A model generated the notes under the pieces. That model was not told the DNA's origin. It was given only the letters and a program-made list of their open reading frames with translations, and ran no database searches. A DNA stretch of 64,000 bases, taken from the NCBI GenBank assembly GCA_023229865.1, contig JALNYL010000002.1:27577-91576 (forward strand), read 5' to 3'. Below, piece after piece: positions 38,549-58,952 of the stretch. A program made the translations under genes and the position numbers. How positions within the stretch are numbered: position 1 is the first letter of the stretch; each line of letters starts with the position of its first letter. This stretch comes from Minisyncoccota bacterium. GTDB lineage: Bacteria; Patescibacteriota; Minisyncoccia; Phycocordibacterales; UBA1550.

Positions 38549-38555
38549 TTAAAAA

Positions 38556-39386: not shown

Positions 39387-39444
39387 AACATTAAAAAGAA
39401 AAGGCCCTCATCACTGAGGGCCTTTGAGTTGTGTTTCGTTTCGA

Positions 39445-40829: not shown

Positions 40830-40833
40830 TACC

Positions 40834-41487
40834 ATGGCAGTTAAATCAAAAGCAGCACAAGATTTTGTTCCCATTAAAGAAATCCGCGACGGTGTCGTGA
40901 TTTTAAAAGACGGAACCATCCGTATGCTTCTTATGGCATCTTCGGTCAACCTCGCCCTCAAGTCTTCAGATGAGCAACAGGCGGTTTTGATGCAGTTCCA
41001 AAGTTTTTTGAACTCCCTAGAATTTTCAACTCAGGTATTTATCCAATCACGCCGTCTCGACATTCGCCCCTACCTTATTCTTCTTGAAGAGCGCCTCCAT
41101 GAGGAAGTCAACGATCTTCTTAAAATTCAGATTCGCGAATATATGGGCTTCGTAAAAACCATTGCTCAGTCCACCAATATTATGAGCAAGCTCTTTATTA
41201 TTGTTGTTCCTTACGCGCCACCAAAATCAGTTACGAGCTCTTCGTCATCAAGTGGGGGATTTAGCCTCTTTGGAGGGAAGAAGGACACAAGCAGCACTCC
41301 ATCGCAAAGCGCCGTCGAGGCTTTTGAGGAGGCACGCACACAGCTCGAGCAGCGCGCAGGTATTATCAGTCAAGGGCTCGCGCGCACGGGGGTTCGCGTG
41401 GTTCCCCTTGGTACTGAGGAGCTCACCGAGCTTTACTATCGCCTATTCAACCCAGGAGAGGTAGAGAAGAAGGTCGACGTAAGATAA
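40834..41487 (+). CDS. VirB4/TrbE-family ATPase, N-terminal domain fragment (separate ORF)
   Basis: 217 aa. AQDFVPIKEIRDGVVILKDGTIRMLLMASSVNL is the characteristic N-terminus of Gram-positive-type VirB4/TcpF/PrgJ ATPases. It ends 14 nt before, and in a different frame from, the ATPase ORF. Confidence 0.6.
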   Translation: MAVKSKAAQDFVPIKEIRDGVVILKDGTIRMLLMASSVNLALKSSDEQQAVLMQFQSFLNSLEFSTQVFIQSRRLDIRPYLILLEERLHEEVNDLLKIQIREYMGFVKTIAQSTNIMSKLFIIVVPYAPPKSVTSSSSSSGGFSLFGGKKDTSSTPSQSAVEAFEEARTQLEQRAGIISQGLARTGVRVVPLGTEELTELYYRLFNPGEVEKKVDVR

Positions 41488-41500
41488 CAAAACTATTTTT

Positions 41501-43342: not shown

Positions 43343-43412
43343 AAACAAAAGTCCACAAAAAGATCCTTCTTTTTGTGGACTTTTGCTGAATATTCGCGGT
43401 ATAATAAAATAT

Positions 43413-44534
43413 ATGTATCAAAGGCAGACACTACTCCTTGGTGCTCTTGTAAGCATTTTTTGTGTGCCTCTTTTTGTTTTTGCACAGACATCAACGACAA
43501 CAGCGGAACAACCAAACGCAAGTGATGCATTTCAACAAAAAATCAACGAGCTTATTCAGCGACAACTCGACGCTGCTCCAACAGCAGAAGAAATTCTCAT
43601 AAAAGCAGTTGCCGACAACCTTGAAGTAAAAACGGTTCCATCAAAACCAAGCCCCAACGAATCTGTAAAAGTGTCTATCCAAAGCTATCTCATTGATCTC
43701 AATAAAGCATCAATTGTGTGGACCCTCAATGGGAAAGTGGCACTAAGTGGTGTCGGAGAAAAAGTATTTACATTCACCACGGGGAACAGTGGAGAAACAA
43801 CGACACTTCTTGTTTCCATGACGGCGAACACAGGGGAGGTAATAACTAAAGAATTTTCTTGGACCCCTGTTGGGGTTACTCTCTTTTGGGAAGCGGACAC
43901 ATACACCCCTCCTTTTTATAAAGGGAAGCCACTTCTTTCCTACGAGGCAAAAGTAACGGTTATAGCAACCCCCGACAACACAGACTCAAAAAATGCACTC
44001 AGTGCAGGAAATCTTGTTTACACTTGGAAGAAAAAAGGGATGACAGACGCCAGTGTTTCTGGGTATGGGAAAAATTCATTTTCTTTTACAGGACCAAGAC
44101 CATTCAGCACAACCAATGCTAGTGTCTTGGTATCCTCTGTTGATGATGCAATTAATTCTGAAGCAAAGGTTAATCTTTCTCTTTCAACCCCCTTTATTCT
44201 TTTTTACGAAAATCATCCACTCTTAGGGACTCTTTACAATAAACCATTTGGAAAAGGAATGAGTCTCTCAAGTAAGGAGCTTTCGATAAGCGCTGCTCCT
44301 TACTTCTTCTCAAAAGAGCCGGCAACAACACAAACAATGCAATATAACTGGACAACAAACGGAAGACCTGTTCAGAACGAAGGAAAAAACATTACGCTTC
44401 GTAACGAAAAAGGAGAGGTTGGGTCTGCCGAAGTTTCTCTGTCAGTAAGGGGTCTCCGCCAAACTTTCCAAACAGCTAGTCAAAACCTTCGCATTGATTT
44501 TACAGAAGACACGTCAAATAAGCCTTTATTTTAA
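43413..44534 (+). CDS. Hypothetical secreted protein (T4SS-like cluster)
   Basis: Signal peptide MYQRQTLLLGALVSIFCVPLFVFAQ. Beta-rich S/T-rich body. The start is taken at the ATG at 43413. Confidence 0.45.
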   Translation: MYQRQTLLLGALVSIFCVPLFVFAQTSTTTAEQPNASDAFQQKINELIQRQLDAAPTAEEILIKAVADNLEVKTVPSKPSPNESVKVSIQSYLIDLNKASIVWTLNGKVALSGVGEKVFTFTTGNSGETTTLLVSMTANTGEVITKEFSWTPVGVTLFWEADTYTPPFYKGKPLLSYEAKVTVIATPDNTDSKNALSAGNLVYTWKKKGMTDASVSGYGKNSFSFTGPRPFSTTNASVLVSSVDDAINSEAKVNLSLSTPFILFYENHPLLGTLYNKPFGKGMSLSSKELSISAAPYFFSKEPATTQTMQYNWTTNGRPVQNEGKNITLRNEKGEVGSAEVSLSVRGLRQTFQTASQNLRIDFTEDTSNKPLF

Positions 44535-44537
44535 ATT

Positions 44538-45557
44538 ATGAAAAAATACTTTTTACCAGCGGTCGTCTCTTTCTTTCTCCTCTTTTCAGTAGGGGTGCTC
44601 TCTGCGTACGCTCAAGTAGAGGCAAACTACACCCCCCTCGCCCCCCTGCCAGGAACAACAATTCAGAGTGGTGACGGAGCTGGCACAACAAACATCTCAA
44701 CGTACGTTGCAGGAATGATCAAGCTCCTTGTTGCTCTCGGAGCGGCGCTTGCCGTCCTCTTTGCGATTATTGGTGGGACGCAGTATGTCGCCGCAAGTAT
44801 CAACCCCGCAGCAAAGGCTGGAGCACTTGAGCGCATCCAAAACTCTCTTGTTGGCTTGGCAATTATTCTCTCTTCGTATCTTGTTTTAAACTCTATCAAC
44901 CCAGACTTAGTAAACTTTAAACTTGAACTTCCCCCTGTTACGGTACGACATGAGGTAAATGTTACCGCAGGAGGTTCAACAATAGATGATGCTGGGTGCC
45001 CCACCATCACCACCCCTTCTGTTCTTTTAAATTCGACAGAGTCTCAACAACTAGAATCTGGAGCAACGGTTGTTTTCACGGCAAGCGATGCAACTGCAGA
45101 CGTACAGGCCAACCTACAAACACTGCAAGGGGAATCAAATAAACTAATCCTTGCCCTCCCACAACTTAACTCTGGGATAAAGGCCACCGTTACCTCTGCA
45201 TACCGCCCATATGTATATCAAAAACATTTGTATGAAATATATGACACATGGGTCAAAAAAGATCTAAAAAACAACACCAACCCGGCCTGCGCCGCAAACA
45301 AAACCTTCGTTGGGGCCGAATCAACAAAACACTTTGGCCCTAATGGTCCCGGACTCGTTGCGAACCCAGACGGACAAATCGCTCCTCACACAAAAGGCAC
45401 AGGGATCGATATTAAATTAGAGGGGATTGAGTATGGGAATTTTACGGCTTATGGGTACGCTGATATTAACGATTTTATGGTCCACAACGGTATTTATCTC
45501 AGCTGGCAAGGTCTCCAGAATGACAAGGTTCACTTTAACTTGAGAAGTAGGCCATAA
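44538..45557 (+). CDS. Putative VirB2/TrbC-like pilin-domain protein with C-terminal extension
   Basis: Signal peptide then two hydrophobic helices separated by a short loop (MIKLLVALGAALAVLFAIIGGTQYV / LVGLAIILSSYLVLNSINP), as in T4SS pilins. Followed by a ~200-aa soluble domain. Confidence 0.3.
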   Translation: MKKYFLPAVVSFFLLFSVGVLSAYAQVEANYTPLAPLPGTTIQSGDGAGTTNISTYVAGMIKLLVALGAALAVLFAIIGGTQYVAASINPAAKAGALERIQNSLVGLAIILSSYLVLNSINPDLVNFKLELPPVTVRHEVNVTAGGSTIDDAGCPTITTPSVLLNSTESQQLESGATVVFTASDATADVQANLQTLQGESNKLILALPQLNSGIKATVTSAYRPYVYQKHLYEIYDTWVKKDLKNNTNPACAANKTFVGAESTKHFGPNGPGLVANPDGQIAPHTKGTGIDIKLEGIEYGNFTAYGYADINDFMVHNGIYLSWQGLQNDKVHFNLRSRP

Positions 45558-45566: not shown

Positions 45567-46943
45567 ATGAGCAAACGAAATTTAATAATTATCACAGTTG
45601 TCATTCTCTCTCTTCTTGGAGGAGGAGCTTACTGGTACTACTCTCAAAAAGGCGCTCTTCCTGGAGGTGATATATTATTTCCAGGAGGAAGTGGTACCCG
45701 AACGGATGGGGGAGGTACGACCACAGAGCAGCCAACAGACGAAGATACCTTTACTCCAGGAGTAGACACGAGACTTCCTCGCCTCTACCAGCTCCACATC
45801 ACTCCCACTTCTGGTGTTGGCTTTTTTGAAGCAAAAGACAAAAAGGGTGTCGTAACCAACAGAACCGTGCGCTATGTCGAACGTGGACTTGGACACATTT
45901 TTGAAACACAGCTTTCTACTTATGTTGAATCACGTATTGTAAACGAAACTCGCCCTCGCATTTCAGAAGCACTCTGGGGAAACAGTGGAAACAGTGTGGT
46001 TTTTCGATTCCTTGATACAACGGAAGGGGCGACAATAAAGACACGCATCATAAACCTTTCGTCTCCTTTTGCAACTTCTTCGTCAGAATTTTTAACAACG
46101 GAAGAGCTTTACCTTCCTGACTCGATTCCTTTTATGGCGACAGCAGAGGATGGAACCAACGGATTGTTCTACCTCGCTGAAAAAGACGGGACTTTCACAA
46201 CGTTCCAAAACCTTAACGCCTCAAAAATATTTAACTCTGTATTTACTGAGTGGCTCCCCCAGTTCCCAAGCCAAAAACTTGTAACGCTCACTTCACGACC
46301 ATCTGAAAAAGTTCCTGGGCACATGTTCTTCCTTGACCCAAAAACAAAAGCGGTGACAAAGATTCTTGGCAACATTAACGGCCTCACCACGCTCACAAGC
46401 CACGATGGAAAATTTGTTCTTGCTTCCGAATCAAGAAATGGGGCACCAGAACTTTCAGTGTACGACGTTACCAAGAAAACAATGCTTCCTATTTATTTGC
46501 GCGGTCTCCCTGAGAAGTGCGTATGGGGGACAAAGAACCCAACATTAGTGTACTGCGGGGTCCCCGAGGCGCTTACAAACGCTAGTTACCCAGATCAGTG
46601 GTACCAAGGGGTTGTCTCTTTTTCTGACTCACTCTGGGAGATCAACGCGGAAACTCTTGCTGTTCGCAAAGTTTTCACTCCAAAAGATTTCAAAGCCCCT
46701 GCTCTTGATATGACCAATCTCTCCCTTTCTTCGGATGATGCGTATCTTGTGTTTATCAACAAACTAACGAGCACGCCATGGGTGTACAGTATCGTTGAAC
46801 CACTTCCACCACCTACTCCTATCACTGTTCCCGTGGCGGGAACAAGCACTCCAGTAGGGAGCACCTCGACATTGACAGGAACAACCACAAGGGCTGCAGT
46901 TCCTCCTTCAGTAGTAACCTCCGACATGCAGAAGCTCAAGTAG
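45567..46943 (+). CDS. Hypothetical membrane-anchored secreted protein (beta-propeller-like?)
   Basis: 458 aa. N-terminal TM IIITVVILSLLGGGAYWYY. G/T-rich linker. C-terminal T/P/S-rich tail. Confidence 0.4.
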   Translation: MSKRNLIIITVVILSLLGGGAYWYYSQKGALPGGDILFPGGSGTRTDGGGTTTEQPTDEDTFTPGVDTRLPRLYQLHITPTSGVGFFEAKDKKGVVTNRTVRYVERGLGHIFETQLSTYVESRIVNETRPRISEALWGNSGNSVVFRFLDTTEGATIKTRIINLSSPFATSSSEFLTTEELYLPDSIPFMATAEDGTNGLFYLAEKDGTFTTFQNLNASKIFNSVFTEWLPQFPSQKLVTLTSRPSEKVPGHMFFLDPKTKAVTKILGNINGLTTLTSHDGKFVLASESRNGAPELSVYDVTKKTMLPIYLRGLPEKCVWGTKNPTLVYCGVPEALTNASYPDQWYQGVVSFSDSLWEINAETLAVRKVFTPKDFKAPALDMTNLSLSSDDAYLVFINKLTSTPWVYSIVEPLPPPTPITVPVAGTSTPVGSTSTLTGTTTRAAVPPSVVTSDMQKLK

Positions 46944-47004
46944 CCACATTATAAAAACCGCCGAGCACCTGTCTGGTGCTCGGCGGTTTTTATAATGTGG
47001 CTAC
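46940..47004. terminator. Stop-to-stop perfect palindrome / bidirectional terminator between convergent ORF 45567-46943 and yidC
   Basis: gTAGccacattataaaaaccgccgagcacc-tgtc-tggtgctcggcggtttttataatgtggCTAc. A perfect ~30-bp arm palindrome that includes both genes' stop codons. Confidence 0.65.
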
Positions 47005-47729
47005 TTAATAGCCTCTTTCGCCATCTTCTTTACATAGAGCTCATGAGCAATCGAGAACATGTTGCTTGTTGCCCAATAAAGCGCGATTGCCGCTGAAATA
47101 GAGTACGAGATACCAAACACGATCACGGGAAGCACGTAGCGCATCTGAACATTCATGCTGCGCGCAAAGTCATCCTTGAATGATGGTTTCGCATCCTTGT
47201 CGGCCGGAGCCATTGGAGGAATAGAGAGTTTGATTTGATAATACTGCGTAACGGCTGCGAGAAGAGCAAGGACGCCACTCTTTGCCGAAAGCAAAACCCC
47301 CAAGAACATCATGCTTATTGCCTCAGGAAGGTGAATGAATGAGTAAAGATGTTCCGCGTTAAGATTGGGGAGTCCTTTAAAGAACACAAAGTAGAGCGCA
47401 AAGATAATAGGGAGCTGTACCACGATGAGAAGACAGCCGGAAAGGGGATTAACTCCATGTTCCTTGTAAAACTCCATCATCTTGCGCGCCTGTTCTTGCT
47501 TGTCGTCCTTGTGCTTTTCCTTGATCTTCTCAAGGTGTGGCGCGAGTTCGCGCATCTTTGCCTGAGAAACAACTTGCTTGTGTGAAAGAGGGAGGAGTGC
47601 TCCGCGGACTACAATTGTTAATAAAATAATCGCAACACCAACGTTTGCTCCCGGGACGGTCGAGATAATAAAAACGAGGGTGTTATAAAGTGGCTGATAT
47701 AAAAATGTTGAAAAAATTCCTGGTTCCAT
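47001..47729 (-). CDS. yidC: Membrane protein insertase YidC (short Oxa1-type)
   Basis: 242 aa, 5 TM helices. Conserved order yidC-yidD-rnpA-rpmH. Confidence 0.8.
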   Translation of the reverse strand: MEPGIFSTFLYQPLYNTLVFIISTVPGANVGVAIILLTIVVRGALLPLSHKQVVSQAKMRELAPHLEKIKEKHKDDKQEQARKMMEFYKEHGVNPLSGCLLIVVQLPIIFALYFVFFKGLPNLNAEHLYSFIHLPEAISMMFLGVLLSAKSGVLALLAAVTQYYQIKLSIPPMAPADKDAKPSFKDDFARSMNVQMRYVLPVIVFGISYSISAAIALYWATSNMFSIAHELYVKKMAKEAIK

Positions 47730-47761
47730 TCGAGTATCTTACCGCGAATAACCCCTCTTTG

Positions 47762-47992
47762 CTAGGGGAGTGGATCTATGTGATTCTTTTGCCAAGGGTG
47801 ACAGCGGAGGATACGACGCGCCCCCAGGAAAACGCCCTTAAAAACACCGTATTTCAAAACCGCCTGCTTGGTATACTCAGAGCACGTAGGATAAAAAACG
47901 CAGGTCGTTCCTTTTTTAAGAGAAAACATCCCCGTATCGAGGGATAGATATTTTTGGTAGAAATTAATGAGAAAAACGACAAAATTACGCAT
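47762..47992 (-). CDS. yidD: Membrane protein insertion efficiency factor YidD
   Basis: 76 aa. CVFYPTCSEYTKQAVLKYG and RILRCHPW are YidD hallmarks. Confidence 0.85.
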   Translation of the reverse strand: MRNFVVFLINFYQKYLSLDTGMFSLKKGTTCVFYPTCSEYTKQAVLKYGVFKGVFLGARRILRCHPWQKNHIDPLP

Positions 47993-48002
47993 AAAATGAG
48001 GT

Positions 48003-48374
48003 CTATTTGAGCAGATTGGCTGTTTTAAACGCTTTTTCCATCTCTGCTTTAAGGTTTTGGAAGGTTTCTTTCTTTGCTTCTATTTTTGGATAGATAACAA
48101 CAGTTGTGGAACCTTCAATTTGCTTTAAAATAGGGGCTACGAGGTCATAAAAGCGCCTGCGGAGAGTATTTCTGTCTACTGCTGTCTTGGCTGTCTTTTT
48201 TGAAACAACAACAGAAACACGGCTTATTTCTGACTCTTTTCCTCCCTTTTTATAGAAAACAGCGGTAAAAAGCTTTTTGTCTACGTCCGAAACGCGCTTC
48301 TGGGAAAGCGGAAATCCCTTCACGTTCTGTGAAGGGAATTCTTTTCTAGATATACGGTTCTTACGGGGAAGCAT
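48003..48374 (-). CDS. rnpA: Ribonuclease P protein component
   Basis: 123 aa. Basic protein with KNRISRKEF and RNTLRRRFYD RnpA motifs. Confidence 0.85.
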   Translation of the reverse strand: MLPRKNRISRKEFPSQNVKGFPLSQKRVSDVDKKLFTAVFYKKGGKESEISRVSVVVSKKTAKTAVDRNTLRRRFYDLVAPILKQIEGSTTVVIYPKIEAKKETFQNLKAEMEKAFKTANLLK

Positions 48375-48394
48375 AGTGTTACCCCAAAAAGGGA

Positions 48395-48532
48395 CTAAAC
48401 TGTTGTGAGACGCTTGCGACCCTTTTGGCGGCGAGCTTTCAAAACATCACGTCCACTTTTGGTTTCTGAACGAACGAGAAAACCATGCGTTGTTGCGCGC
48501 TTTTTCTTCTTTGGCTGATATGTTTGAGACAT
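48395..48532 (-). CDS. rpmH: 50S ribosomal protein L34
   Basis: Not in the ORF track because it is 45 aa. Reverse-complement translation [45 protein letters not shown] matches the L34 consensus. Confidence 0.85.
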
Positions 48533-48784
48533 AGTAGAGATACCATACACCATATCTCAAAAAAAATCCAGCCCACCATTCAAAAACACCAAATTATCAA
48601 GAATTTCTTAAACTGGAGCCTTTGTCGTATAATGCGCTAACTGAGGAGCGTAAATTCTCTGTAAACATTGAGGGGAAACGCTGTCCACAAGTTATCCACA
48701 CCCTATTAACCAACTCATCCACCTCAACCCTTTCTGTATTTCTTTAACTCAGAATATAATGGAGGAACGAATTTAAATAACCGT

Positions 48785-50143
48785 ATGCAAAACAACGCAC
48801 AACTCTGGGAAAAAGCTCTTTTTGCACTCGAAGGTGAGCTTTCTCGCGCAAACTTCAGCACGTGGTTCAAAAACACCGCCATCATCAAGCAAGATGATGG
48901 GACGATCGTTATTGGTGTTCCTAATGAGTTTGTAAAGGACTGGCTCCAGAACAAATTTCACAAAACAATTCTTCATTCTCTTCGCAATCTTTCGGAGAAC
49001 GTGCGTGCGGTTGAATATTCTGTGTGCAAAATAGAGGAACCAAAAACAGAAAAGAAGTCTGTTGAAGCTCCAAAGTCCGCTCCTGTAGCAGAGCTTCCTC
49101 TTTCAAATCTTTATGTAAACAGAGAGGACGGATTAAATCCTCGCTATACTTTTGATGATTTTATTATTGGTGCGTTTAACGAACTCGCCTACGCAGCATC
49201 TCAGGCTATTCTTAAAAAAGTGGGGACCAACGTTTACAACCCTCTCTTTATCTATGGAAATACCGGGCTCGGCAAAACACACCTCATTCAAGCAATCGGT
49301 AATGAGGTAAAGAAACACTATCCTAATAAACGCGTGTTTTACACGACGTCTGAAAAATTTTCTGTTGACTACATCAACTCAGTAGGGCAGGGGTCAAAAG
49401 CTATGGCGGCATTTAAAAACAAGTACCGCGTGTATGATCTTTTGATTATGGATGACATTCAATTTTTGTCGAACAAAGAAAAAACTCAGGAAGAGCTTTT
49501 CCATATTTTTAATGAGCTCTATCACAACAATAAGCAGATTATTTTCTCATCTGATAAACACCCTAATTACATCCCAGCTCTTGAGTCACGTCTCAAGTCT
49601 CGTTTTAGTGCGGGAATGATTGTTGATGTTCAGGAACCAGAATATGAATCACGCCTCGCTATTCTTCGTGCGAAAGCAGAGACACAAAAGTTTTTCCCTC
49701 CTCAAGAAATTATTGAGTATCTCGCTTCTTCCGTTCAGGGAAACATTCGTGAACTCGAAGGACTTTTGAATGGCATCGTTTGTCAGTCAGAACTTAAAAA
49801 CAGAAATCTCACCCTTAATGAGATAAAACCTTTTATCAAAAATACCTCAAAGCCTAAAAAACTCTTGTCAGTAAAGGAGATTGTAAAGGTTATTTCTGAT
49901 TTCTATAACATTGAAGAATCTTTCGTCTATGATAAAACGAGACGAAAGGAGGTTTTGAAGCCTCGACAAATTGCGATGTTTATTCTTCGCGAAGACTTCA
50001 ATATCTCATACCCAACAATAGGACAGAAGCTCGGTGGGCGAGATCATACCACCGTGATGCACTCCTGTGAGAAAGTGAAAGAGGATATTAAAAATGATCT
50101 CTCTCTTATGCAGGAAGTGGATCAGATACGCGCAATGTTTTAA
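48785..50143 (+). CDS. dnaA: Chromosomal replication initiator protein DnaA
   Basis: 452 aa. AAA+ Walker A GNTGLGKTHLIQAIGN. Sensor/box motifs. C-terminal DNA-binding domain GQKLGGRDHTTVMHSCEKV. Confidence 0.95.
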   Translation: MQNNAQLWEKALFALEGELSRANFSTWFKNTAIIKQDDGTIVIGVPNEFVKDWLQNKFHKTILHSLRNLSENVRAVEYSVCKIEEPKTEKKSVEAPKSAPVAELPLSNLYVNREDGLNPRYTFDDFIIGAFNELAYAASQAILKKVGTNVYNPLFIYGNTGLGKTHLIQAIGNEVKKHYPNKRVFYTTSEKFSVDYINSVGQGSKAMAAFKNKYRVYDLLIMDDIQFLSNKEKTQEELFHIFNELYHNNKQIIFSSDKHPNYIPALESRLKSRFSAGMIVDVQEPEYESRLAILRAKAETQKFFPPQEIIEYLASSVQGNIRELEGLLNGIVCQSELKNRNLTLNEIKPFIKNTSKPKKLLSVKEIVKVISDFYNIEESFVYDKTRRKEVLKPRQIAMFILREDFNISYPTIGQKLGGRDHTTVMHSCEKVKEDIKNDLSLMQEVDQIRAMF

Positions 50144-50399
50144 TTTATTATTTTAAACCCTGTGTACTACTTGTGGATAAATTTAAAAACGAGTGTGAAT
50201 AAATCCTCATAACATTTATAAAAAACATTATGAAAAAAGTTTATAAACAATTCCAAAAAAGTTATCCACAGAAATTGATAATGGATGTAGTTAAAATAAG
50301 TAGTAAACAAAAGGAAATTAAAGAGTTATCCACTTATCCACATCTATAGTATTAAAAATAAGTATTTATATAAATAATAATAAACACCTTTAAAAGAAT
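50144..50399. promoter_or_regulatory. Putative oriC (dnaA-dnaN intergenic): DnaA-box cluster plus AT-rich unwinding element
   Basis: TGTGGATAA at 50173 (reverse-complement TTATCCACA). GTTATCCACA at 50263. Tandem GTTATCCACTTATCCACA at ~50328. Followed by a highly AT-rich stretch atagtattaaaaataagtatttatataaataataataaacacc. Additional boxes lie upstream of dnaA (TGTCCACAAGTTATCCACA at ~48683). Confidence 0.65.
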
Positions 50400-51500
50400 A
50401 TGAACTTCACTTGTAATAGAGAAACTCTTCAAAAATATATAACCAACGCCGAGAGGGTTACAGGGAAGAATTCATCACTTCCTATTCTCAGTTCTGTTTT
50501 GATTGCTACAAATGGGAAGTCTTTAGTTATTCGTTCAACCAATCTCGAAGTAGGAGTTGAGTTTCAAATTCCTGCTGAAATAAAAGAAGAAGGAAGTGTT
50601 GCTGTTTCAGGATCTCTTTTTTCAAATATTCTTATGAGTATTCCTGATGAAGAATCAGTTACCGTTTCTGTAAAAGATAGTGTTTGTAAAATAATAACCA
50701 AAACAAAAAATATCACGGTCAAAGGACTTCTTCCTGATGATTTTCCTACTATCCCGGTGATTAATGAAGGAGAAAGTTTTACGATTCAATCACAGGTTTT
50801 TATTCAAGGAGTTAAATCAGTTCTTATGAGTGCTGCTATTTCTGATATTAAACCAGAGATTTCAAGCGTATATGTGTATCAAAAAGAGAAGAGCTTGGTA
50901 TTTGTCGCTACGGACTCTTTCCGTCTCGCTGAGAAGAAAATAGACTACAACGGAGAGGAACTTTCTCAAGGAGTTATTATTCCTGTAAAAAATATTATGG
51001 AAATAGTAAAACTTTTTGATGGAGTTATGGAAAACATACTCTTTAAAATAACAAAAACACAGATTTCTTGTGTTAGTAAATCGGTATATGTAACATCACG
51101 CGTTATTCAAGGGGTTTATCCAGACTATGAACAGATTCTTCCTAAAAATAACACTACGGAAATAGTGATGTTAAAACAAGATCTTATTAATACTCTTAAA
51201 CTCTCAACTCTTTTTTCGGATAAATTTAATAAAATTCAGTTTATTGTTGAACCATCTCAGAAAAAATGTTTAGTTTTTACAAAAAATTCTGATATTGGAG
51301 AAACAGAGTCAAATCTTACAGTGACGATGTCGGGAGAACCAATAGAAATATCATTAAATGGGAAACATCTCTTTGATTGTCTCAGTGTTATCGCGGAAGA
51401 TAGTATTGTAATGCAGTGTAATGGTTCAAATAAACCAGCAGTGATTCGTGGTCTTGGAGATAACTCATTTGTGTATCTCACTATGCCACTTACTAAATAA
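50400..51500 (+). CDS. dnaN: DNA polymerase III beta subunit (sliding clamp)
   Basis: 366 aa. Three-domain beta-clamp pattern. Sits immediately downstream of dnaA/oriC. Confidence 0.9.
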   Translation: MNFTCNRETLQKYITNAERVTGKNSSLPILSSVLIATNGKSLVIRSTNLEVGVEFQIPAEIKEEGSVAVSGSLFSNILMSIPDEESVTVSVKDSVCKIITKTKNITVKGLLPDDFPTIPVINEGESFTIQSQVFIQGVKSVLMSAAISDIKPEISSVYVYQKEKSLVFVATDSFRLAEKKIDYNGEELSQGVIIPVKNIMEIVKLFDGVMENILFKITKTQISCVSKSVYVTSRVIQGVYPDYEQILPKNNTTEIVMLKQDLINTLKLSTLFSDKFNKIQFIVEPSQKKCLVFTKNSDIGETESNLTVTMSGEPIEISLNGKHLFDCLSVIAEDSIVMQCNGSNKPAVIRGLGDNSFVYLTMPLTK

Positions 51501-51505
51501 ACATT

Positions 51506-51760
51506 ATGATTCCTTTAAACCAACTTCTTAATCGGTTTAAAAACCTCACTAATAGCGAAAAGGTTAAAAAACAACTTGTGGTAGAAATTTTAACAAACAA
51601 AAAAATTCCTATTACGATTGATCAAATTTCTATTTCAAAAACCACCGTTTTTACAAAAGTTCCTCCTATTATAAAAACAGAACTTCTTTTCCAGAAAGAA
51701 GAAATATTAAAAGAAATACAAAAAATTTCCGGACTTACTACGATATCAAATATTCAGTAA
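51506..51760 (+). CDS. Hypothetical small protein downstream of dnaN (possibly DUF721/DciA-like)
   Basis: 84 aa. The assignment rests on its position after dnaN and on its basic/hydrophobic pattern. No firm motif. Confidence 0.3.
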   Translation: MIPLNQLLNRFKNLTNSEKVKKQLVVEILTNKKIPITIDQISISKTTVFTKVPPIIKTELLFQKEEILKEIQKISGLTTISNIQ

Positions 51761-51813
51761 TCCATTAAAAAAGCGCGCGGCACAAAGTGCCGCGCGCTTT
51801 TTTAATGGATTAC
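51757..51813. terminator. Stop-to-stop perfect palindrome / bidirectional terminator
   Basis: gTAAtccattaaaaaagcgcgcggcac-aaa-gtgccgcgcgcttttttaatggaTTAc. Includes the stop codons of both convergent genes. Confidence 0.65.
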
Positions 51814-54341
51814 TCTTCAGAGATAAGAAGTTGTGCAGACCCGGTCCCCTTATTAAGAATAGAATCATACACCACCGCAGTAAGAGAATTGTACGTAGTA
51901 AGAGAACCAAAATCTTGCGGTGTAAAAGAGAAAACAAAAGGTTCTGCAGTTTTTTTGCCGACAAGCTCGCCATTCAAAAATAATTCAACACGAGAAACAG
52001 GGTAGCGACTCATTGTTGATACGGAAAGCGTTATAACCTCGTCAGGTTTATGAGAAAGGGTAATATCTGTGCCGCTTAAGGTAACAGAAGAGACTGCATC
52101 ACTACTGTGATTGTTGTCATACTCCGTCGGAATGCCACTACGGTCGCCCTCAGCGATATTTTTTGAGGCAACCCAAGCGCGGACAGGAATTTCCCAAAGA
52201 GAGTACTGAGAGTCATTCTGAGGGTTTATAGGAGGGGTCCCTCGTGGTTCAGTTTTGTTTACCCAATGGAGAATAGTATGAACCTCAGGAACAACAATCG
52301 TTCCTTTCATTTCAGCTGGAGTCAGCGCCGTTGCGAGCTTCCCCGAAGAACGATCTATTACATATCTATCACCTCCTTGCCAAATCCCCTGAAGAGGAGC
52401 AGGAAGAATGGTTAAATCTTCTTTTTCTGGAGCAATAAATTTTTCATTTGGGGAAACCTTCATTGCTTCAGCCATAAATGCGTGCCAAATCGGCGTAATA
52501 ATAAATCCCGCAATATTTTTTTGGAGAGGAGTGTTGTCGTTGTTTCCTGCCCACATACCAACAGCGATGTTTGGAGTGTATCCTACTGTCCATACATCAC
52601 GGAAGTCGTTGGTGGTACCTGTTTTAACCGCGACGTCTTTGCCGGGGAAATACAGTGCTGAGTTTGCACCGAACTCTGGAGTACGCGCGACGTTGTCGGC
52701 GAGAATATTAGTAACCTTGCGCGCAATTTCAGAAGGGAAGACTTGCTCACTTGTTTGTTTAAATTCTTCTACAACAGTTCCATCTTTCGCTTCTATGCGA
52801 AGAATGGCGGTGTTGGGATTTCTTGTACCGTCGTTTGCAAAAACACCATAGGCCCCCGTGAGATCAAGGAGAGAAACTTCGCCGCCTCCAAGCACAAGGG
52901 TAAGTCCATACTGATTTGCACTACCAAGACTTTCTATCCCCATACGGCGCGCGGTTGTGAGAGAATCGTTGATCCCTGCAAGATACAATGTTTTTACTGC
53001 GGGGATGTTGAGAGATTGTGCGAGTGCATCACGCATCGAAATAGGGCCACGATATTTCCCATCGTAGTTTTCTGGCATATAACAATCCTCGGGTTTAATT
53101 TTTGGAGAGTAGGGAACACCCTGTGCATCACAGTTGGTACTGAAATTTGTCTTGAGGTCAAAGAGTACTGTCTCGGGTGTATATCCCTTCATAAACGCCG
53201 TCCCGTAAACGAACGGCTTAAAAGTAGAACCTGGCTGACGATGCGCGAGCGCAACGTTGAAGTTACCTTCTTTTTTAACATCAAAATAATCACGCGACCC
53301 CACCATCGAGAGAACCTGGCCATTTGTAGGATCTACGGCAACGAGCGCCATGTTTGAAGCGTTGAAGTTTTTCTCGAGGTCAGGAGCGGCGTTTGTAATG
53401 ATTTCCTCAGCTTTCTTTTGAAGGTCGTAATTCAATGTCGTGATGACGCGGTAACCATTTTCTTGTACCGCAAGTTCTCCATATTTATTGGCGAGATATT
53501 CTTTTACCCACTCAACAAAGTGAGGGGCTTTGATTCCCGTCGGCTCCTTAGGAAGAAACTCAATTTTTTCTGCGCGCGCAGCCACGAGCTCCTCGCTCGT
53601 AATATAGCCGAGCTCGTTCATGCGACGAAGTACGAGATTTTTGCGTTCGTCGAGTTTATCGCGATGATTGCCGTACGGAGAGTAGTATGTGGGAGCGTTG
53701 GGGATAGCGGCGAGATATGCAGACTCTGCGAGGGTAAGATCCTTCGCCTCTTTTCCAAAAAATGTTTTGGTTGCCTCCCCGATGCCGTAGATGCTGCCAC
53801 CGTAAGGAATCTCATTTAAATAAAGAGCAAGAATCTCGTCTTTTTCAAAAGCCCCCTCAAGGCGGAAGGAAAGAAGAATCTCTTTTAGTTTGCGTGTGAT
53901 GAGCTTTTCATCGGTGAGCATGGTCTTCTTGATCACCTGCTGAGTAATTGTTGAGCCACCACCACGTGTTCCTCCGTAAATAATCGCGCGAGCGACCCCA
54001 CGGAAACTAACTCCGTGATGTTCGTAAAAAGCCGAGTCCTCAATAGAGATAACCGCCTTTTTTACCCAAGGAGAAATATCAGCAAAGGGAACAATCGTGC
54101 GCTTTACATTTTGGTGCACATCATAGAGAAGGATTTTCCCCGTGCGGTCGTAGATTTTTGTGGATTGCGCAACCTTGCGGTCGTGGAATTCAGTAAAATC
54201 AGGAAGCTTCATAAAAGAAGTCCAAAGAATGAGCACTCCCGCAAAAAGAAAAGCACCACCGACAAAGAAAAGAGCCACCGCTTTCCAGTGGTTTAAAATG
54301 TAACGCAATTTTGATTTGTGTGAGCGGGCGCGTCGCACCAT
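51810..54341 (-). CDS. Class A penicillin-binding protein (PBP1A-type glycosyltransferase + transpeptidase) with C-terminal extension
   Basis: 843 aa. N-terminal TM. GT51 motifs ISIEDSAFYEHHGV and GGSTITQQVIK. Transpeptidase SxxK-context STFKPFVY, SLN and KTGTT. Confidence 0.9.
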   Translation of the reverse strand: MVRRARSHKSKLRYILNHWKAVALFFVGGAFLFAGVLILWTSFMKLPDFTEFHDRKVAQSTKIYDRTGKILLYDVHQNVKRTIVPFADISPWVKKAVISIEDSAFYEHHGVSFRGVARAIIYGGTRGGGSTITQQVIKKTMLTDEKLITRKLKEILLSFRLEGAFEKDEILALYLNEIPYGGSIYGIGEATKTFFGKEAKDLTLAESAYLAAIPNAPTYYSPYGNHRDKLDERKNLVLRRMNELGYITSEELVAARAEKIEFLPKEPTGIKAPHFVEWVKEYLANKYGELAVQENGYRVITTLNYDLQKKAEEIITNAAPDLEKNFNASNMALVAVDPTNGQVLSMVGSRDYFDVKKEGNFNVALAHRQPGSTFKPFVYGTAFMKGYTPETVLFDLKTNFSTNCDAQGVPYSPKIKPEDCYMPENYDGKYRGPISMRDALAQSLNIPAVKTLYLAGINDSLTTARRMGIESLGSANQYGLTLVLGGGEVSLLDLTGAYGVFANDGTRNPNTAILRIEAKDGTVVEEFKQTSEQVFPSEIARKVTNILADNVARTPEFGANSALYFPGKDVAVKTGTTNDFRDVWTVGYTPNIAVGMWAGNNDNTPLQKNIAGFIITPIWHAFMAEAMKVSPNEKFIAPEKEDLTILPAPLQGIWQGGDRYVIDRSSGKLATALTPAEMKGTIVVPEVHTILHWVNKTEPRGTPPINPQNDSQYSLWEIPVRAWVASKNIAEGDRSGIPTEYDNNHSSDAVSSVTLSGTDITLSHKPDEVITLSVSTMSRYPVSRVELFLNGELVGKKTAEPFVFSFTPQDFGSLTTYNSLTAVVYDSILNKGTGSAQLLISEE

Positions 54342-54412: not shown

Positions 54413-55597
54413 ATGACAAACGAAGAGAAAATCGATGAAATATTGACGCGTGGTGTTGCAGAAGTTATCCACAAGGATGACCTGCGCGCAAAACTCCTCA
54501 AAGGGGAACCCCTTCGTATTAAATTTGGGACTGATCCTACAAGCCCCAATATTCACCTCGGTCGCGCAACGTCGATTTGGAAACTCCGCGAACTCCAAGA
54601 CCTCGGACACACCATTGTTTTTATTATTGGCGATTTTACGGGGGTTATCGGTGATACTTCCGACAAAGACAGCGAGCGCCCAATGCTTTCTCGTGAGGCA
54701 GTAGAAAAGAACCTCGAAACTTACTTTGAGCAGGTTGGGAAAATCCTCGATATGAGTAAGGTGGAAAAACACCGAAATACCGAGTGGCTCGAAAAACTTA
54801 ATTACCGAGAAATCACCGAACACGCAGACGTTTTTTCTCTTTCTGATTTTATTTCTCGCGAAAACATCAAAAAGCGCCTCGATGAAGGAAAGCGCGTTTC
54901 GCTTCGCGAACTTTTGTACCCACTTATGCAGGGGTATGACAGTGTTGCTATTGATGCAGATCTCGAAATCGGCGGGACCGATCAAAAGTTTAATCTCCTT
55001 GCCGGACGTAAACTTCAGGAGCGTTTCAATAAGGAGCCACAGAACATCATGATGCTTAATATCATCGAAGGCCTCGATGGTCGCAAGATGAGTTCAAGTT
55101 GGGGAAACACTATTAATCTCACTGACACCGCAAACGATATATTTGGAAAGGTGATGAGTTTGCGCGATGAGCTCATCGTGAAATATTTTGAACACGCAAC
55201 ACGTGTGCCGATGGAGCGCGTACAAGAAGCAGAAGCAGCGCTCGGTCGCGGAGAGAATCCTCGCGATGTGAAACTCGACCTCGCAGAAGAAATCGTCGCA
55301 ATGTATTACGGACGTGACGAAGCGCTTCGCGCACGTGAATCATTTCTCGCGACGTTTCAGAAAAAAGAAATTCCTGACGACATCGAAGAAATAAAAGGAG
55401 AAGGAAAACTCGGAGAACTTTTAAAAGCAAAAGAAATTGTTTCGTCGATGACTGACTGGCGTCGTCTTGTGGGAGAAGGTGCGGTAAAGATTCTTAAAGA
55501 AGGTGGTGTTGAAGAAAAAATCACCGACGATACCGTTCTCGCAACTCCTGGTGTATACAAAATAGGGAAGCGAAGATTTGTGAAGATTGTTGAGTAA
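54413..55597 (+). CDS. tyrS: Tyrosyl-tRNA synthetase (archaeal/eukaryal-like type)
   Basis: 394 aa. Class-I HIGH-like NIHLGRA. KMSSS motif (KMSSSWGN), as in archaeal-type TyrRS. C-terminal extension. Confidence 0.65.
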   Translation: MTNEEKIDEILTRGVAEVIHKDDLRAKLLKGEPLRIKFGTDPTSPNIHLGRATSIWKLRELQDLGHTIVFIIGDFTGVIGDTSDKDSERPMLSREAVEKNLETYFEQVGKILDMSKVEKHRNTEWLEKLNYREITEHADVFSLSDFISRENIKKRLDEGKRVSLRELLYPLMQGYDSVAIDADLEIGGTDQKFNLLAGRKLQERFNKEPQNIMMLNIIEGLDGRKMSSSWGNTINLTDTANDIFGKVMSLRDELIVKYFEHATRVPMERVQEAEAALGRGENPRDVKLDLAEEIVAMYYGRDEALRARESFLATFQKKEIPDDIEEIKGEGKLGELLKAKEIVSSMTDWRRLVGEGAVKILKEGGVEEKITDDTVLATPGVYKIGKRRFVKIVE

Positions 55598-55653
55598 TTA
55601 AAAAGAAAAAGCGCGCGACCAAAATTGGTCGCGCGCTTTTTCTTTTTAATTAC
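55596..55653. terminator. Stop-to-stop perfect palindrome / bidirectional terminator
   Basis: TAAttaaaaagaaaaagcgcgcgacc-aaaatt-ggtcgcgcgctttttctttttaaTTA. Overlaps the tyrS stop and the stop of the acidic minus-strand ORF. Confidence 0.65.
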
Positions 55654-55814
55654 TCAATCTCGCTTGAAGCAAATTCTTCCCCCATACCCATTTCCTCGTC
55701 TTCAACCAAAAGGTCGTCATCAAGGTCAAGATCGAGAGCATCATCGCCGAAATCGAGATCATCGTCACCGAGATCGATCATTGCATCATCAAGTACTTCT
55801 TCTTCGTCGGACAT
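55650..55814 (-). CDS. Small highly acidic protein (54 aa)
   Basis: Not in the ORF track. Reverse-complement translation MSDEEEVLDDAMIDLGDDDLDFGDDALDLDLDDDLLVEDEEMGMGEEFASSEIE. Starts at 55812-55814 and ends at the palindromic terminator. Confidence 0.4.
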   Translation of the reverse strand: MSDEEEVLDDAMIDLGDDDLDFGDDALDLDLDDDLLVEDEEMGMGEEFASSEIE

Positions 55815-57192: not shown

Positions 57193-57534
57193 GTGGAACC
57201 AGAACAAACAAGTAAGAAGTTTTTAGTAATTCCCCTTGGCGTGGTCGTGCTCATTGTTGCAGCATTGGTGGTTCTTTGGACCAACAGCGCAGATGCTCCT
57301 CTTAATACAGAAACCAAGGAAGAAGTAGTCATTCCTAAAGTAGAAAGAATCTACACCGAAGCAGAAAAGCTACAAATCCTCGCCGACATCGCATCTTCAT
57401 CACAAAAAGACACAACCACCACAGCACAAGACCTCAAAACACTTCAAAATCTTTCAAAAACAGCCCCTCCTGACAAAACGTCAACCGAGGAAAAGCTCCG
57501 CATCCTCGAGTCCCTTAGTTCTGGTTCAAACTAA
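57193..57534 (+). CDS. Hypothetical single-TM protein
   Basis: 113 aa. TM FLVIPLGVVVLIVAALVVLW. Immediately upstream of the tail-collar protein. Confidence 0.4.
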   Translation: MEPEQTSKKFLVIPLGVVVLIVAALVVLWTNSADAPLNTETKEEVVIPKVERIYTEAEKLQILADIASSSQKDTTTTAQDLKTLQNLSKTAPPDKTSTEEKLRILESLSSGSN

Positions 57535-57552
57535 TTAATTAATTCAACAATC

Positions 57553-58677
57553 ATGAAACATCAAATTGCCACCGTCCTCAAAATCTCATCACTTGCGCTC
57601 GTTCTTTCCCTTGGTCTTTCCTACGCTCTCGCCTGGACTCCACCTACTTCAAACCCACCAAGTGGCAACGTTGCTGCCCCTATCAACGCAAGTGCAACCG
57701 CACAAGAAAAGCTTGGTGACCTTACCCTCAGCAGACTCTTCACAACCGCTTCTTCAAGTATTGGTACTACGGCACAGACACAGACACTCACGGTTGCAGG
57801 AACCATTGGTGCGACAGGAGATATTTGTACGGCGGTGGGCGGAGGATCGTGTTTGAGTACGGCGGGAGGAGGGCTTATTGACCCAACACCAATCGGCTCC
57901 GTGGCTTCATTCGCAGGCTCAGTTGCTCCAAGTGGCTACCTCATCTGTGATGGTACTGCAGTATCTCGTACTACCTACGCGTCACTCTTTGCGGTGATTG
58001 GTACAACATATGGTGCAGGCAACGGCTCAACCACTTTCAACCTCCCTGATCTTCGAGGAGAGTTTATTCGTGGGCTTGATAAAGGTCGTGGAATTGATGC
58101 GGGGCGTGCGCTCGGTAGCTGGCAGGCTGATTTACTCAAGAGTCATACCCATACCGCATACGTTATTGCGCCAGGAGGTGGTTATGGTCCGTATTCTAAC
58201 ATTATGGGGCCTCAAACAATCACCACTTCTGCTACGGGGGGAGCTGAAACTCGCCCTCGCAACGTTGCGATGAACTATGTGATTAAGGCCCTCAACAACA
58301 GTGAGATGGTGCTCATGGCTACATCAACGGTCGCTTCACTTATTCCTGCAGGTGCGGTTATGCATTTCGACCTTGCAACGTGTCCTACTGGGTGGTTGCC
58401 CGCAAACGGAACAGGAGGAACGGTAGATCTCCGTGGAGAGTTCATCCGCGGTCTCGATAGTGGGCGTGGGGTGGATGCTGGGCGTACCCTTGCGAGTGCA
58501 CAAGGACAAGCTATTCAGAGTCACACCCACACATTTACAGCACAGATTTCTGGTATCTATACATACTCAAATGTTGGAGGAACGCAGGGGACCCAACAAG
58601 GAGGCACGACTGCGGCTACTGGCGGCACGGAAACTCGCCCTCGCAACGTTGCACTCCTTGCGTGTGTGAAGTCGTAG
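57553..58677 (+). CDS. Secreted protein with two phage tail-collar (MdpB-like) domains
   Basis: Signal peptide. Repeat 1: GYLICDGTAVSRTTYASLFAVIGTTYGAGNGSTTFNLPDLRGEFIRGLDKGRG. Repeat 2: GWLPANGTGGTVDLRGEFIRGLDSGRGVDAGRTLASAQGQAIQSHTH. Both are the classic Phage_tail_collar pattern. Confidence 0.75.
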   Translation: MKHQIATVLKISSLALVLSLGLSYALAWTPPTSNPPSGNVAAPINASATAQEKLGDLTLSRLFTTASSSIGTTAQTQTLTVAGTIGATGDICTAVGGGSCLSTAGGGLIDPTPIGSVASFAGSVAPSGYLICDGTAVSRTTYASLFAVIGTTYGAGNGSTTFNLPDLRGEFIRGLDKGRGIDAGRALGSWQADLLKSHTHTAYVIAPGGGYGPYSNIMGPQTITTSATGGAETRPRNVAMNYVIKALNNSEMVLMATSTVASLIPAGAVMHFDLATCPTGWLPANGTGGTVDLRGEFIRGLDSGRGVDAGRTLASAQGQAIQSHTHTFTAQISGIYTYSNVGGTQGTQQGGTTAATGGTETRPRNVALLACVKS

Positions 58678-58683
58678 TTAAAA

Positions 58684-58750
58684 TCTAAGTAAATACAAAA
58701 AGAGGGGGCGGTCGCATAGCGACCGCCCCCTCTTTTTGTATTTACTTAGA
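58684..58750. terminator. Palindromic bidirectional terminator (33-bp arms)
   Basis: tctaagtaaatacaaaaagagggggcggtcgc-ata-gcgaccgccccctctttttgtatttacttaga. Confidence 0.65.
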
Positions 58751-58952
58751 TTACCTGAATCTTTGTGTGCTTTCCTACCTTCATGCACTTGGTGCAGATC
58801 TTGATACGTGAGCCATCAGCGAGAGGTGCCCACTGAAGATTAGGGTACTTACGCTTGTTTCCCGTAGGATTGAATTTTGTTGCGCGGACGCGATTTGAGT
58901 AGTGACCTACAATGATCGTACCCTTTCCGCAAGTTGGACAGACTTTTGCCAT
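58746..58952 (-). CDS. rpmB: 50S ribosomal protein L28
   Basis: 68 aa, basic. MAKVCPTCGKG..NRVRATKFNP..CTKCMK pattern of zinc-ribbon L28. Confidence 0.7.
   Translation of the reverse strand: MAKVCPTCGKGTIIVGHYSNRVRATKFNPTGNKRKYPNLQWAPLADGSRIKICTKCMKVGKHTKIQVI

Follow-up and report, generated by a model that had tools for sequence, protein, structure and literature searches.

A tail-collar protein with a patescibacterial export leader: a candidate cell-borne binding fibre in a Candidatus Pacebacteria genome

Introduction

Whether a tail-collar gene in a bacterial genome belongs to a prophage or to the cell itself is the question raised by a gene pair of a Minisyncoccota bacterium (GenBank assembly GCA_023229865.1). 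The pair encodes a membrane protein of 113 amino acids (aa) and a tail-fibre-like protein of 374 aa, and lies in a stretch of 64,000 nucleotides (nt) of contig JALNYL010000002.1 (positions 27,577 to 91,576 of the forward strand), referred to below as the window. A protein that is 100% identical to the 374-aa product (P0001), from a 109,962-bp contig, is recorded as "MAG: phage tail protein [Candidatus Pacebacteria bacterium]" at NCBI and as "microcystin-dependent protein" at JGI. The gene itself and its domain annotation are hence already on record, and the Pacebacteria label agrees with an earlier note, made from the letters of the window, that had assigned the DNA to an organism of the Candidate Phyla Radiation (CPR). 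That note had proposed an adhesive protein with two tail-collar domains. The most informative features of the locus, namely a leader family found across the Patescibacteria and a conserved partner gene, were absent from it. Both appear to be undescribed so far, and a literature search on tail collars or tail fibres in Patescibacteria or Parcubacteria found nothing relevant. The analysis supports a cellular rather than a prophage origin of the 374-aa gene and makes an exported binding fibre the favoured, if only moderately confident, reading of its product.

Results

Collar units and exchange of the C-terminal module

Alignment with orthologues and paralogues divides the 374-aa protein into five parts: a leader (residues 1-59), a linker, a first collar unit (unit 1), the junction NNSEMVL and an exchangeable C-terminal module, which in the window is a second collar unit (unit 2; Table 1). 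The protein matches the Collar family PF07484 with E=1.7e-28 and 98.7 bits (gathering cut-off, 24), and the best stretch, in unit 1, covers profile positions 1-57 of 57. Tail-fibre families of PHROG match as well (best E=3e-75), no NCBIfam model does, and the Pfam scan revealed no toxin or enzymatic domain. Landmarks of unit 1 are DLRGEF at residue 166, H198-x-H200 (nt 58144-58152), a variable loop (residues 201-228) and GGAETRPRNVA (residues 229-239); the residues H198, H200, E232, P235, R236 and N237 are invariant in 70 homologous sequences. Among the hits, single-collar proteins of 140-210 aa that share the DLRG...HxH...ETRPRN motifs are frequent.

Unit 2 is homologous to unit 1 (42% identity, E=8e-22) and follows the junction NNSEMVLM (residues 248-255). 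Its layout runs from IPAGAVMHFDLATCPTGWLPANGTGGTVDLRGEF through SHTH (HxH at residues 324-326, nt 58522-58530) and a variable loop to GGTETRPRNVALLACVKS and the end of the protein, and it contains two cysteines (C275 and C371). It lacks 26 residues of unit 1, including the sole helix of the Collar domain, and has LPANGTGGTVDLRG in place of LICDG...FNLPDLRG. The earlier note had claimed two complete tail-collar domains and had named a PF07484 scan as the check. This claim holds for unit 1, which carries the full family, and fails for the shorter unit 2, which, when scanned alone (residues 248-374), matched no Pfam family at E<=1e-3; the two stretches of Collar in the full-length scan were counted at E<=1. 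The closest relatives of unit 2 are likewise without a precomputed PF07484 annotation.

A decayed tandem duplicate was considered as the origin of unit 2 and rejected, with up to 64% identity to the single heads of other CPR proteins versus 42% to unit 1. Proteins P0027, P0261, P0019, P0017, P0195 and P0266 (the last labelled as a Yonathbacteria "phage tail protein") consist of the leader and a short-collar unit as their only head, ending in ...LLAC[IV]KS. This short type has a fixed segment of 4 aa where the full type has 30 aa, and the cysteine of CPxGW is present in all 23 short-type proteins versus 4 of 112 full-type proteins. Among short-collar heads, the loop between SHTH and GGTETRPRN is hypervariable in both length and sequence.

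Orthologues of the 374-aa protein swap their C-terminal module at the fixed NNSEMVL junction. The two at the same locus in other genomes are P0002 (80% identity, locus L002) and P0003 (77% over the first 70% of the protein, locus L001). P0001 and P0002 end in the short-collar unit, whereas P0003 and P0004 carry TAGTGVTLSP repeats and a Cys-rich domain. The same repeats are combined with a QTWQNV...ELR domain in P0006, a paralogue reported from the P0003 contig; in P0005 the QTWQNV domain follows directly after the junction, and in P0016 nothing further follows. On the DNA level, homology between the window and L001 ends at 58311 and restarts at 58734, while L002 is colinear throughout.

Outside the window, the metagenomic proteins P0054, P0081 and P0014 (~620-636 aa) contain three tandem collar repeats and PF21939; P0054 and P0081 additionally possess the N-terminal pilin methylation motif PF07963, which suggests that these two proteins present phage collar modules on a pilin-like scaffold.

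Fold of the collar units

By sequence, the closest solved structures are the long tail fibre of cyanophage A-1(L) (8kec; 2e-8) and T4 gp12 (3e-8), and the HxH of unit 1 aligns with SHQH of 8kec. Rings of HxH motifs bind Zn in gp12 and Fe in gp37, and the same metal-ring principle has been documented for trimeric tail needles (phages Sf14, Mu and P2). Two AlphaFold2 models, both monomers, were used for fold matching only. The full-length model has a confident collar core, with a predicted local distance difference test (pLDDT) of ~90 at residues 110-150, and was matched by Foldseek to 8kec, the T4 gp37 tip 2xgf and gp12; its match to 8on5, the fibre of the Photorhabdus extracellular contractile injection system (eCIS), was not significant (E=0.34). 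The model of unit 2, built from an alignment of 71 sequences, reached a pLDDT of 70.7, and its best Foldseek match was 6ov6 (probability 1.00, E=6e-4), which was hit as three chains (A, B and C). This structure is C24, the receptor-binding tip of a temperate Bizionia phage (PMC11821841), and A-1(L) fibres have been described as trimers (PMC10966104). The predicted fold of the 374-aa protein thus matches receptor-binding tips of phage fibres.

A leader family of the Patescibacteria

The N-terminus of the 374-aa protein, MKHQIATVLK with lysines at positions 2 and 10, is followed by a hydrophobic stretch and by SYALA/WT (A25-L26-A27/W28; here and below the slash marks the putative cleavage site). 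The Kyte-Doolittle maximum in a 15-residue window is 2.05 (residues 8-22), and AlphaFold2 places a helix at residues 2-27. From these features a Sec signal peptide, already noticed earlier, was identified by eye, and signal peptidase I is predicted to cut at ALA/W, after Ala27. In distant relatives an AxA-type site likewise stands right before the conserved tryptophan (AQA/EW, VQA/AW, AHA/AW).

Behind this site, the mature protein begins with a conserved "handle" (Table 1), in which W28, T29, P31, T32, P35, N39, V40, A42, P43, N45, Q51, K53, G55 and L57 are invariant. Over the first ~95 residues, the alignment of seven relatives (A1) shows the pattern K-I..L......G.SY..AWT.PT..P...NV.AP.N.....Q.K.G.L, and the family signature is a signal peptide plus W-[TS]-x-P-[TS]-x-x-P-P-x-x-N-V-x-A-P-[IL]-N ... 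Q-x-K-x-G-x-L. The 374-aa protein, which forms the first row of A1, has this signature and matches the A1 profile with a score of 3e-44. When its N-terminal 112 aa were used in a word-index homology search, a single protein was retrieved, and the family became visible through an exhaustive profile search. A search of 1.84 billion cluster representatives with the leader profile yielded 7,560 proteins at E<=1e-3, of which 1,377 reached E<=1e-10; these numbers are clusters at 50% identity, and the second is the safer one, as the weakest matches at E<=1e-3 may be driven by the signal peptide. The 150 best matches listed, in proteins of 78-645 aa, all start within the first ~40 residues.

In GTDB species genomes the leader module occurs in 80 loci, and some genomes hold three copies. 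Most of these loci are labelled as Patescibacteria or Parcubacteria (Yonath-, Nomura-, Taylor-, Kaiser-, Nealson- and Tagabacteria, Paceibacterota and Minisyncoccia); about 20 bear automatically assigned third-party annotation (TPA) labels, e.g., Saccharibacteria, Gammaproteobacteria and Hyphomicrobiales, which are quoted here as given. Seven divergent loci, including all five with non-CPR labels, have a GC content of 0.45 to 0.61, and the AxA site directly before the conserved tryptophan is kept in all four large proteins that were inspected from divergent loci. No relative of the leader was found in the viral contigs of IMG/VR, and no Pfam or NCBIfam model covers the module. Pfam assigns no domain to most of the 144 top representatives of the family; the others include Gly_rich_2 (12 proteins), Peptidase_S74 (2), collagen (2), Kelch, C4, a Gp53-like tail-fibre C-terminus, fn3 and Collar, heads that are largely of the fibre or trimer type. 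As judged from these sequences, the leader defines a large modular family specific to Patescibacteria.

In 17 of the 80 loci, a leader-family gene adjoins genes for secreted proteins in which GWAWSENIGW(I/K)F motifs recur (e.g., L043, 4979-6235; L047, 4582-6774; L053, 5042-5772). One of them contains an fn3 domain; otherwise they are without a Pfam match.

The gene pair and the small membrane partner

The 113-aa gene precedes the 374-aa gene by 18 nt in the same frame, without an intervening terminator. This short gap, the lack of a terminator between the genes and the strong one after them suggest that the pair is co-transcribed. The earlier observation of a small single-membrane-segment protein ahead of the collar protein proved correct: behind the short tail MEPEQTSKK, the 113-aa protein has one strong membrane segment (residues ~10-29, nt 57220-57279; Kyte-Doolittle, 3.15), followed by three repeats of ~14 aa of the form [ST]xxEKLxILxxLS (nt 57352-57393, 57415-57456 and 57478-57519). 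As lysines stand before the membrane segment, an outward orientation is expected for the C-terminal part. The GTG start is supported by the conservation of the MEPE N-terminus, for the homologues have a common MEPE...KKKF tail and one membrane segment; the clearer ones mostly contain three repeats and a few contain two.

In L001, in L002 and in 17 of the 80 GTDB loci, the gene immediately ahead of a leader-family gene encodes a homologue of the 113-aa protein; the two genes share a strand, and the gap between them is about -40 to 200 nt. In 25 of the 80 loci a homologue is located somewhere in the locus. Pfam, NCBIfam, PHROG and PADLOC yielded no significant match to the 113-aa protein, and the defence models of PADLOC matched the 374-aa protein no better. 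Weak, sub-threshold matches of the small protein in Pfam and PHROG, to DUF5989 (2.8e-4, driven by the membrane segment), an Rz-like spanin (0.024) and a superinfection exclusion protein (0.06) were treated as noise.

TABLE 1 Features of the gene pair and its surroundings (window coordinates)
Feature	Position	Strand	Basis
Gene for 113-aa single-pass membrane protein	57193..57534	+	GTG start; open reading frame list
Gene for 374-aa exported tail-fibre-like protein (putative)	57553..58677	+	Open reading frame list, PF07484, PHROG
Predicted signal peptide, residues 1-27 (MKHQIATVLKISSLALVLSLGLSYALA)	57553..57633	+	Sequence, hydropathy, predicted helix 2-27
Conserved N-terminal handle of mature protein, residues 28-59: WTPPTSNPPSGNVAAPINASATAQEKLGDLTL	57634..57729	+	Alignment, profile search
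Variable Thr/Gly/Ala-rich linker, residues 60-108, with C92 and C101	57730..57876	+	Alignment; pLDDT below 50
Unit 1, residues 109-247, complete tail-collar/knob unit	57877..58293	+	PF07484, alignment, fold match
PF07484 core of unit 1, residues 115-172	57895-58068	+	Pfam scan
Unit 2, residues 256-374, terminal short-collar head	58318..58674	+	Internal repeat, alignment, model
Perfect palindrome, 34-nt arms, 3-nt loop	58682..58752		Inverted-repeat search

Genomic context and the question of a phage origin

The Pfam scans took in about 50 open reading frames (ORFs) of the 64-kb window; another ~46 kb of the 109,962-bp source contig lies outside. They revealed no capsid, terminase, portal, sheath, tube, baseplate or fibre-chaperone gene, in line with the earlier note, which had seen no other phage genes in the window. 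The only "phage" Pfam family elsewhere in it is a Xer-type tyrosine recombinase (14363-15349). The cellular functions identified include RNase Y, a two-component system, CCA-adding enzyme, exonuclease III, a ComM-like Mg-chelatase family ATPase, UvrD, KsgA, UbiA, YidC, the RNase P protein, DnaA, DnaN, PBP1, RuvC and YebC. In three genomes (the window, L001 and L002), the small protein and the collar protein are encoded directly upstream of an M50 peptidase gene; L001 then runs via rpsL, rpsG and fusA into the operon of ribosomal proteins, and the L002 contig ends just after the M50 gene. For L001 and L002, precomputed Pfam annotation shows no phage structural gene, and all Pfam-matched flanking genes are cellular.

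The 374-aa protein is matched by 1,477 phage records, among which annotated tail-fibre proteins are up to ~56% identical to unit 1. In none of the 15 best records listed does the match reach upstream of residue 112 or cover 80% of the query. Virion fibres assemble in the cytoplasm and are not known to carry a signal peptide. With respect to base composition, the overall GC content of the gene is raised (0.529 versus 0.452), which fits its Gly/Ala/Thr/Pro-rich sequence, and its GC at third codon positions (GC3) is 0.427, in line with its neighbours; horizontal acquisition as an explanation for the raised GC was accordingly rejected. Because phage structural genes are missing from the 64 kb as well as from the two orthologous loci, the 374-aa gene is considered cellular and not a prophage remnant. 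The earlier note had arrived at the same view, which is now backed by the housekeeping synteny of L001 and L002, the native GC3, the wide occurrence of the leader in Patescibacteria and the lack of an IMG/VR relative.

The relatives L001 and L002 carry a small surface-protein island at the site of the collar cassette. In both, the cassette is preceded by a Bact_surface_Ig-like protein of ~600 aa (L002, 6885-8687; L001, island 6637-9433), and in L001 a second leader-family gene (8507-9433) also stands ahead of it. The window has ruvC and yebC at the site of these surface genes.

Downstream of the 374-aa gene, the palindrome at 58682-58752 is the longest inverted repeat of the window, surpassing the earlier description as one of the longest. 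It lies between the collar gene (+) and a convergent 68-aa gene (58746-58952, -), whose stop codon it overlaps, and reads as a bidirectional intrinsic terminator. Four more perfect palindromes have arms of 28-33 nt (55590-55657, 46938-47006, 25138-25199 and 51756-51814). All five have loops of 0-5 nt and a GC-rich core flanked by A/T runs, and at least the one at 58682-58752 separates convergent genes. In view of the four others, they look like unusually long bidirectional terminators that are used genome-wide.

Further features of the window were recorded. A cluster resembling a type IV secretion system (T4SS; ~36359-45557) includes a PrgI-family protein (40368-40829), a VirB4/TraG-type ATPase (41501-43342), a weak sub-threshold match to T4SS_pilin (44538-45557; 22.6 bits versus a cut-off of 26.6) and several large secreted or membrane proteins without a Pfam match (e.g., 36359-38548). 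The likely neighbourhood of the replication origin (47001-51500) comprises yidC (47001-47729, -), rnpA (48003-48374, -), dnaA (48785-50143, +) and dnaN (50400-51500, +), and the GC content falls to 0.32-0.40 over 48-52 kb. A 1,016-aa protein (21772-24822) without a Pfam match has repeated motifs of the KLTPSE[TR][IV]S[YH]P type and a central hydrophobic region. Between an aminoacyl-tRNA synthetase-like gene (54413-55597) and ruvC, an extremely acidic 54-aa ORF (55650-55814, -; MSDEEEVLDDAMIDLGDDDLDFGDD...) overlaps the right arm of a palindrome with 33-nt arms. Finally, a mechanically called cation-efflux ORF of 373 aa (6806-7927) overlaps tRNA-Pro (7887-7958), and the true start of this gene is probably the internal methionine of MSNIEK....

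Discussion

Direct observations on the 374-aa gene are the identity of its domains, the conservation of the leader family and of the gene pair, the exchange of the tip and the non-phage context. The likeness of the predicted fold to receptor-binding tips of phages and the swapping of C-terminal modules among orthologues support a binding role outside the cytoplasm, which is the most economical reading of the gene product. More specifically, and with moderate confidence, we interpret the protein as a cell-borne, exported trimeric binding fibre that resembles the tip of a phage tail fibre and would work like the MAT fibres of Bdellovibrio. After co-transcription of the pair, the 374-aa protein would be exported by the Sec pathway and, going by its sequence, cleaved after Ala27. 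It would form a homotrimer, as does every solved relative, and by homology the two HxH motifs would provide rings of histidines around metal ions on the three-fold axis. The mature N-terminus WTxPT..PP..NVxAPIN..QxKxGxL may hold the fibre at the cell envelope, with the 113-aa membrane protein and its three extracytoplasmic EKLxIL repeats as the probable anchor or assembly factor, a role suggested by conserved gene adjacency. Two stacked knobs, the distal one being the short-collar unit, would offer their variable loops (HxH to GGxETRPRN) to an external ligand, most likely a surface glycan or an envelope component of another cell, and the exchange of C-terminal modules observed between orthologues would alter the specificity. 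Host attachment by the protein is a plausible hypothesis.

Several points weigh against such a fibre. Export, cleavage, trimeric state, metal binding, anchoring and ligand are what we infer, and the full-length AlphaFold2 monomer is poor (mean pLDDT, 62). No pilus or other surface-organelle genes adjoin the cassette in the window, where the nearest secretion genes are those of the T4SS-like cluster, more than 10 kb away. The small partner, encoded directly upstream of only 17 of 90 leader-family genes, is not obligatory. To our knowledge, no host of any Pacebacteria has been identified, and we know of no function for the free-standing bacterial collar proteins ("microcystin-dependent" at JGI; MdpB), so that a non-adhesive role is possible. 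The general statement of the earlier note that tail-collar domains outside prophages are carbohydrate-binding adhesins is not established.

Among the competing explanations, an accessory role in type IV pili would make the leader proteins tip or sheath adhesins that are delivered to, or displayed with, the pilus, and the 113-aa protein a part of the machinery. A PilB-type ATPase is indeed encoded within ~4 kb of a leader-family gene in 9 of the 80 loci. In L062 (16-4543) the order is PilB (T2SSE)-PilC (T2SSF)-pilin (N_methyl)-PilD (A24)-leader gene-GWAWSENIGW protein; L069 (52-4492) has the same ORF layout as L062, to which the Pfam scan was applied, and in L043 (3992-8089) and L030 the order is leader gene-GWAW-PilB. 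The fusion of the pilin methylation motif to triple collar repeats in P0054 and P0081 points in the same direction, and in cultivated Saccharibacteria the organ for which a role in host attachment has experimental support is the type IV pilus (PMC9894109, PMC12206443). The 374-aa protein itself, however, has a Sec-type AxA signal (ALA/WT) and not that of a class III prepilin (G/FTLIE; G/F-x-x-x-E), and it has no match to N_methyl (PF07963) at E<=1. The Pfam scans of the window, moreover, revealed no pilus genes, and adjacency to PilB is confined to about 11% of the loci, several of which share their gene layout and may not be independent. Overall, these data suggest a link of the leader family to type IV pili in some lineages, not at the window itself, and a pilus accessory is an unlikely identity for the present protein.

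Release as a soluble lectin, a bacteriocin-like factor or a receptor-masking decoy that blocks, e.g., phage adsorption or competitors appears equally unlikely. Beyond the signal peptide, the 374-aa protein has no membrane segment, lipobox or LPXTG-type anchor (one further hydropathy window, from residue 252, lies above the cut-off), the partner gene is absent from most leader-family members, and inhibition of bacterial growth and biofilm by some phage fibre proteins is reported in a passage of PMC7582827. On the other hand, the mature N-terminus is strictly conserved although the C-termini behind it differ widely, which points to a shared docking function and not to free diffusion, and the lack of toxin or enzymatic domains and of a PADLOC match also speaks against release.

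Somewhat less probable again is a structural protein of the envelope or associated with an S-layer that has no specific external ligand and uses its collar units as trimerisation knobs only. In favour of such a scaffold, the collar domain is likely critical for stability, with receptor binding in a separate, more variable region (PMC12724248), and the excursions between HxH and ETRPRN are as short as about 28-30 aa. That orthologues in the same genomic position have exchanged their C-terminal module speaks against it, as does the hypervariable loop between HxH and GGxETRPRN among short-collar heads, which is the pattern of a specificity determinant and not of a scaffold. A tail-fibre gene left by a prophage or tailocin, i.e., by a phage or contractile injection system of this bacterium, is very improbable and largely refuted: the identity of unit 1 to phage tail fibres, the PHROG matches, the NCBI name and the ~46 kb beyond the window are outweighed by the missing virion genes (for a tailocin or eCIS fibre, sheath, tube and baseplate), the conserved position upstream of the M50 gene, the signal peptide, the native GC3 and a leader that is common to >1,000 CPR protein clusters and without a relative in viral contigs.

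The preferred interpretation as an exported binding fibre can be extended, though only tentatively, to the whole leader family. The cassette of the window would then be one copy of a Patescibacteria-wide modular surface-fibre system, a repertoire by which Parcubacteria recognise hosts or partners and whose specificity is changed by tip exchange; we consider this possible but doubtful. The parts of such a system would be a Sec leader with a handle of ~32 aa, swappable phage-fibre-like heads (full collar, short collar, S74, collagen and Kelch, among others), the three-repeat membrane partner, frequent neighbours with GWAWSENIGW repeats and, in some lineages, a position right inside type IV pilus loci. 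If true, it would be the CPR counterpart of the Bdellovibrio MAT fibres and, after Bdellovibrio, the second, independent case in which phage fibre tips are re-used by a cell that relies on others. For most Parcubacteria we know of no host. In the literature, host identification and the binding mechanisms of these episymbionts are described as largely unknown, the supported apparatus being the type IV pilus of Saccharibacteria. A CPR-specific family of >1,000 clusters, in which a shared leader for export and docking precedes phage receptor-binding modules, provides concrete, testable candidates for cell-cell recognition, and recombinant heads could be used as probes to find hosts in the same samples. 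These observations also imply that "phage tail protein" labels in CPR genomes need not mean prophages.

Like the collar fibre tips of phages (T4 gp12, 1ocy/1pdi; T4 gp37, 2xgf; A-1(L) gp34, 8kec), which are the best matches of the 374-aa protein in sequence and structure, unit 1 spans the full Collar profile, and as in gp37 a collar segment is followed by a receptor-binding excursion and a C-terminal strand that returns to the collar (PMC12724248). In contrast to these tips, the protein has a signal peptide and the CPR handle instead of a baseplate-attachment domain, a very short head excursion of ~28 aa, two tandem knobs and housekeeping neighbours, with no virion genes nearby. Unit 2 finds its best structural match in C24 (6ov6), the putative receptor-binding tip of the long tail fibre of a temperate phage from Bizionia argentinensis; the sequence identity is only ~20%, the TM-scores are low (a monomer model is compared with an intertwined chain), and C24 is a prophage protein. 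The free-standing "microcystin-dependent protein" (MdpB), which we take to be COG4675, has the DLRG...HxH...ETRPRN motifs and the JGI name in common with the 374-aa protein, which adds an export signal, the CPR handle and the second, short-collar unit; the name itself implies no mechanism. The pilin-fused proteins P0054 and P0081 of uncultured bacteria (PF07963, three collar repeats and PF21939) likewise seem to export tandem collar units on a cell-surface scaffold, but with a class III prepilin signal in place of the Sec-type signal and CPR handle.

In function and architecture, the closest precedent by analogy is the MAT fibres of Bdellovibrio. These are trimeric, phage-like fibres with a signal peptide and an invariant N-terminal domain that is thought to bind the predator's own surface; they carry S74 and non-S74 tips for which "tip swapping" has been proposed, are encoded by many paralogues per genome, and have been demonstrated to be displayed on the surface and to bind prey glycans (PMC10769870). 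The CPR family resembles them in combining a common N-terminus with exchangeable C-terminal tips (S74, collagen, Gp53-like, Kelch and Collar). It differs in that the MAT N-terminal domain is beta-rich and ~130 aa long, compared with ~32 aa for the CPR handle. The CPR proteins, most of which measure 150-650 aa, are also much smaller, are frequently accompanied by a gene for a small membrane partner and are known here from sequence. Membership of the CPR family in the MAT superfamily is thus unlikely and not claimed; the likeness is one of architecture and proposed function.

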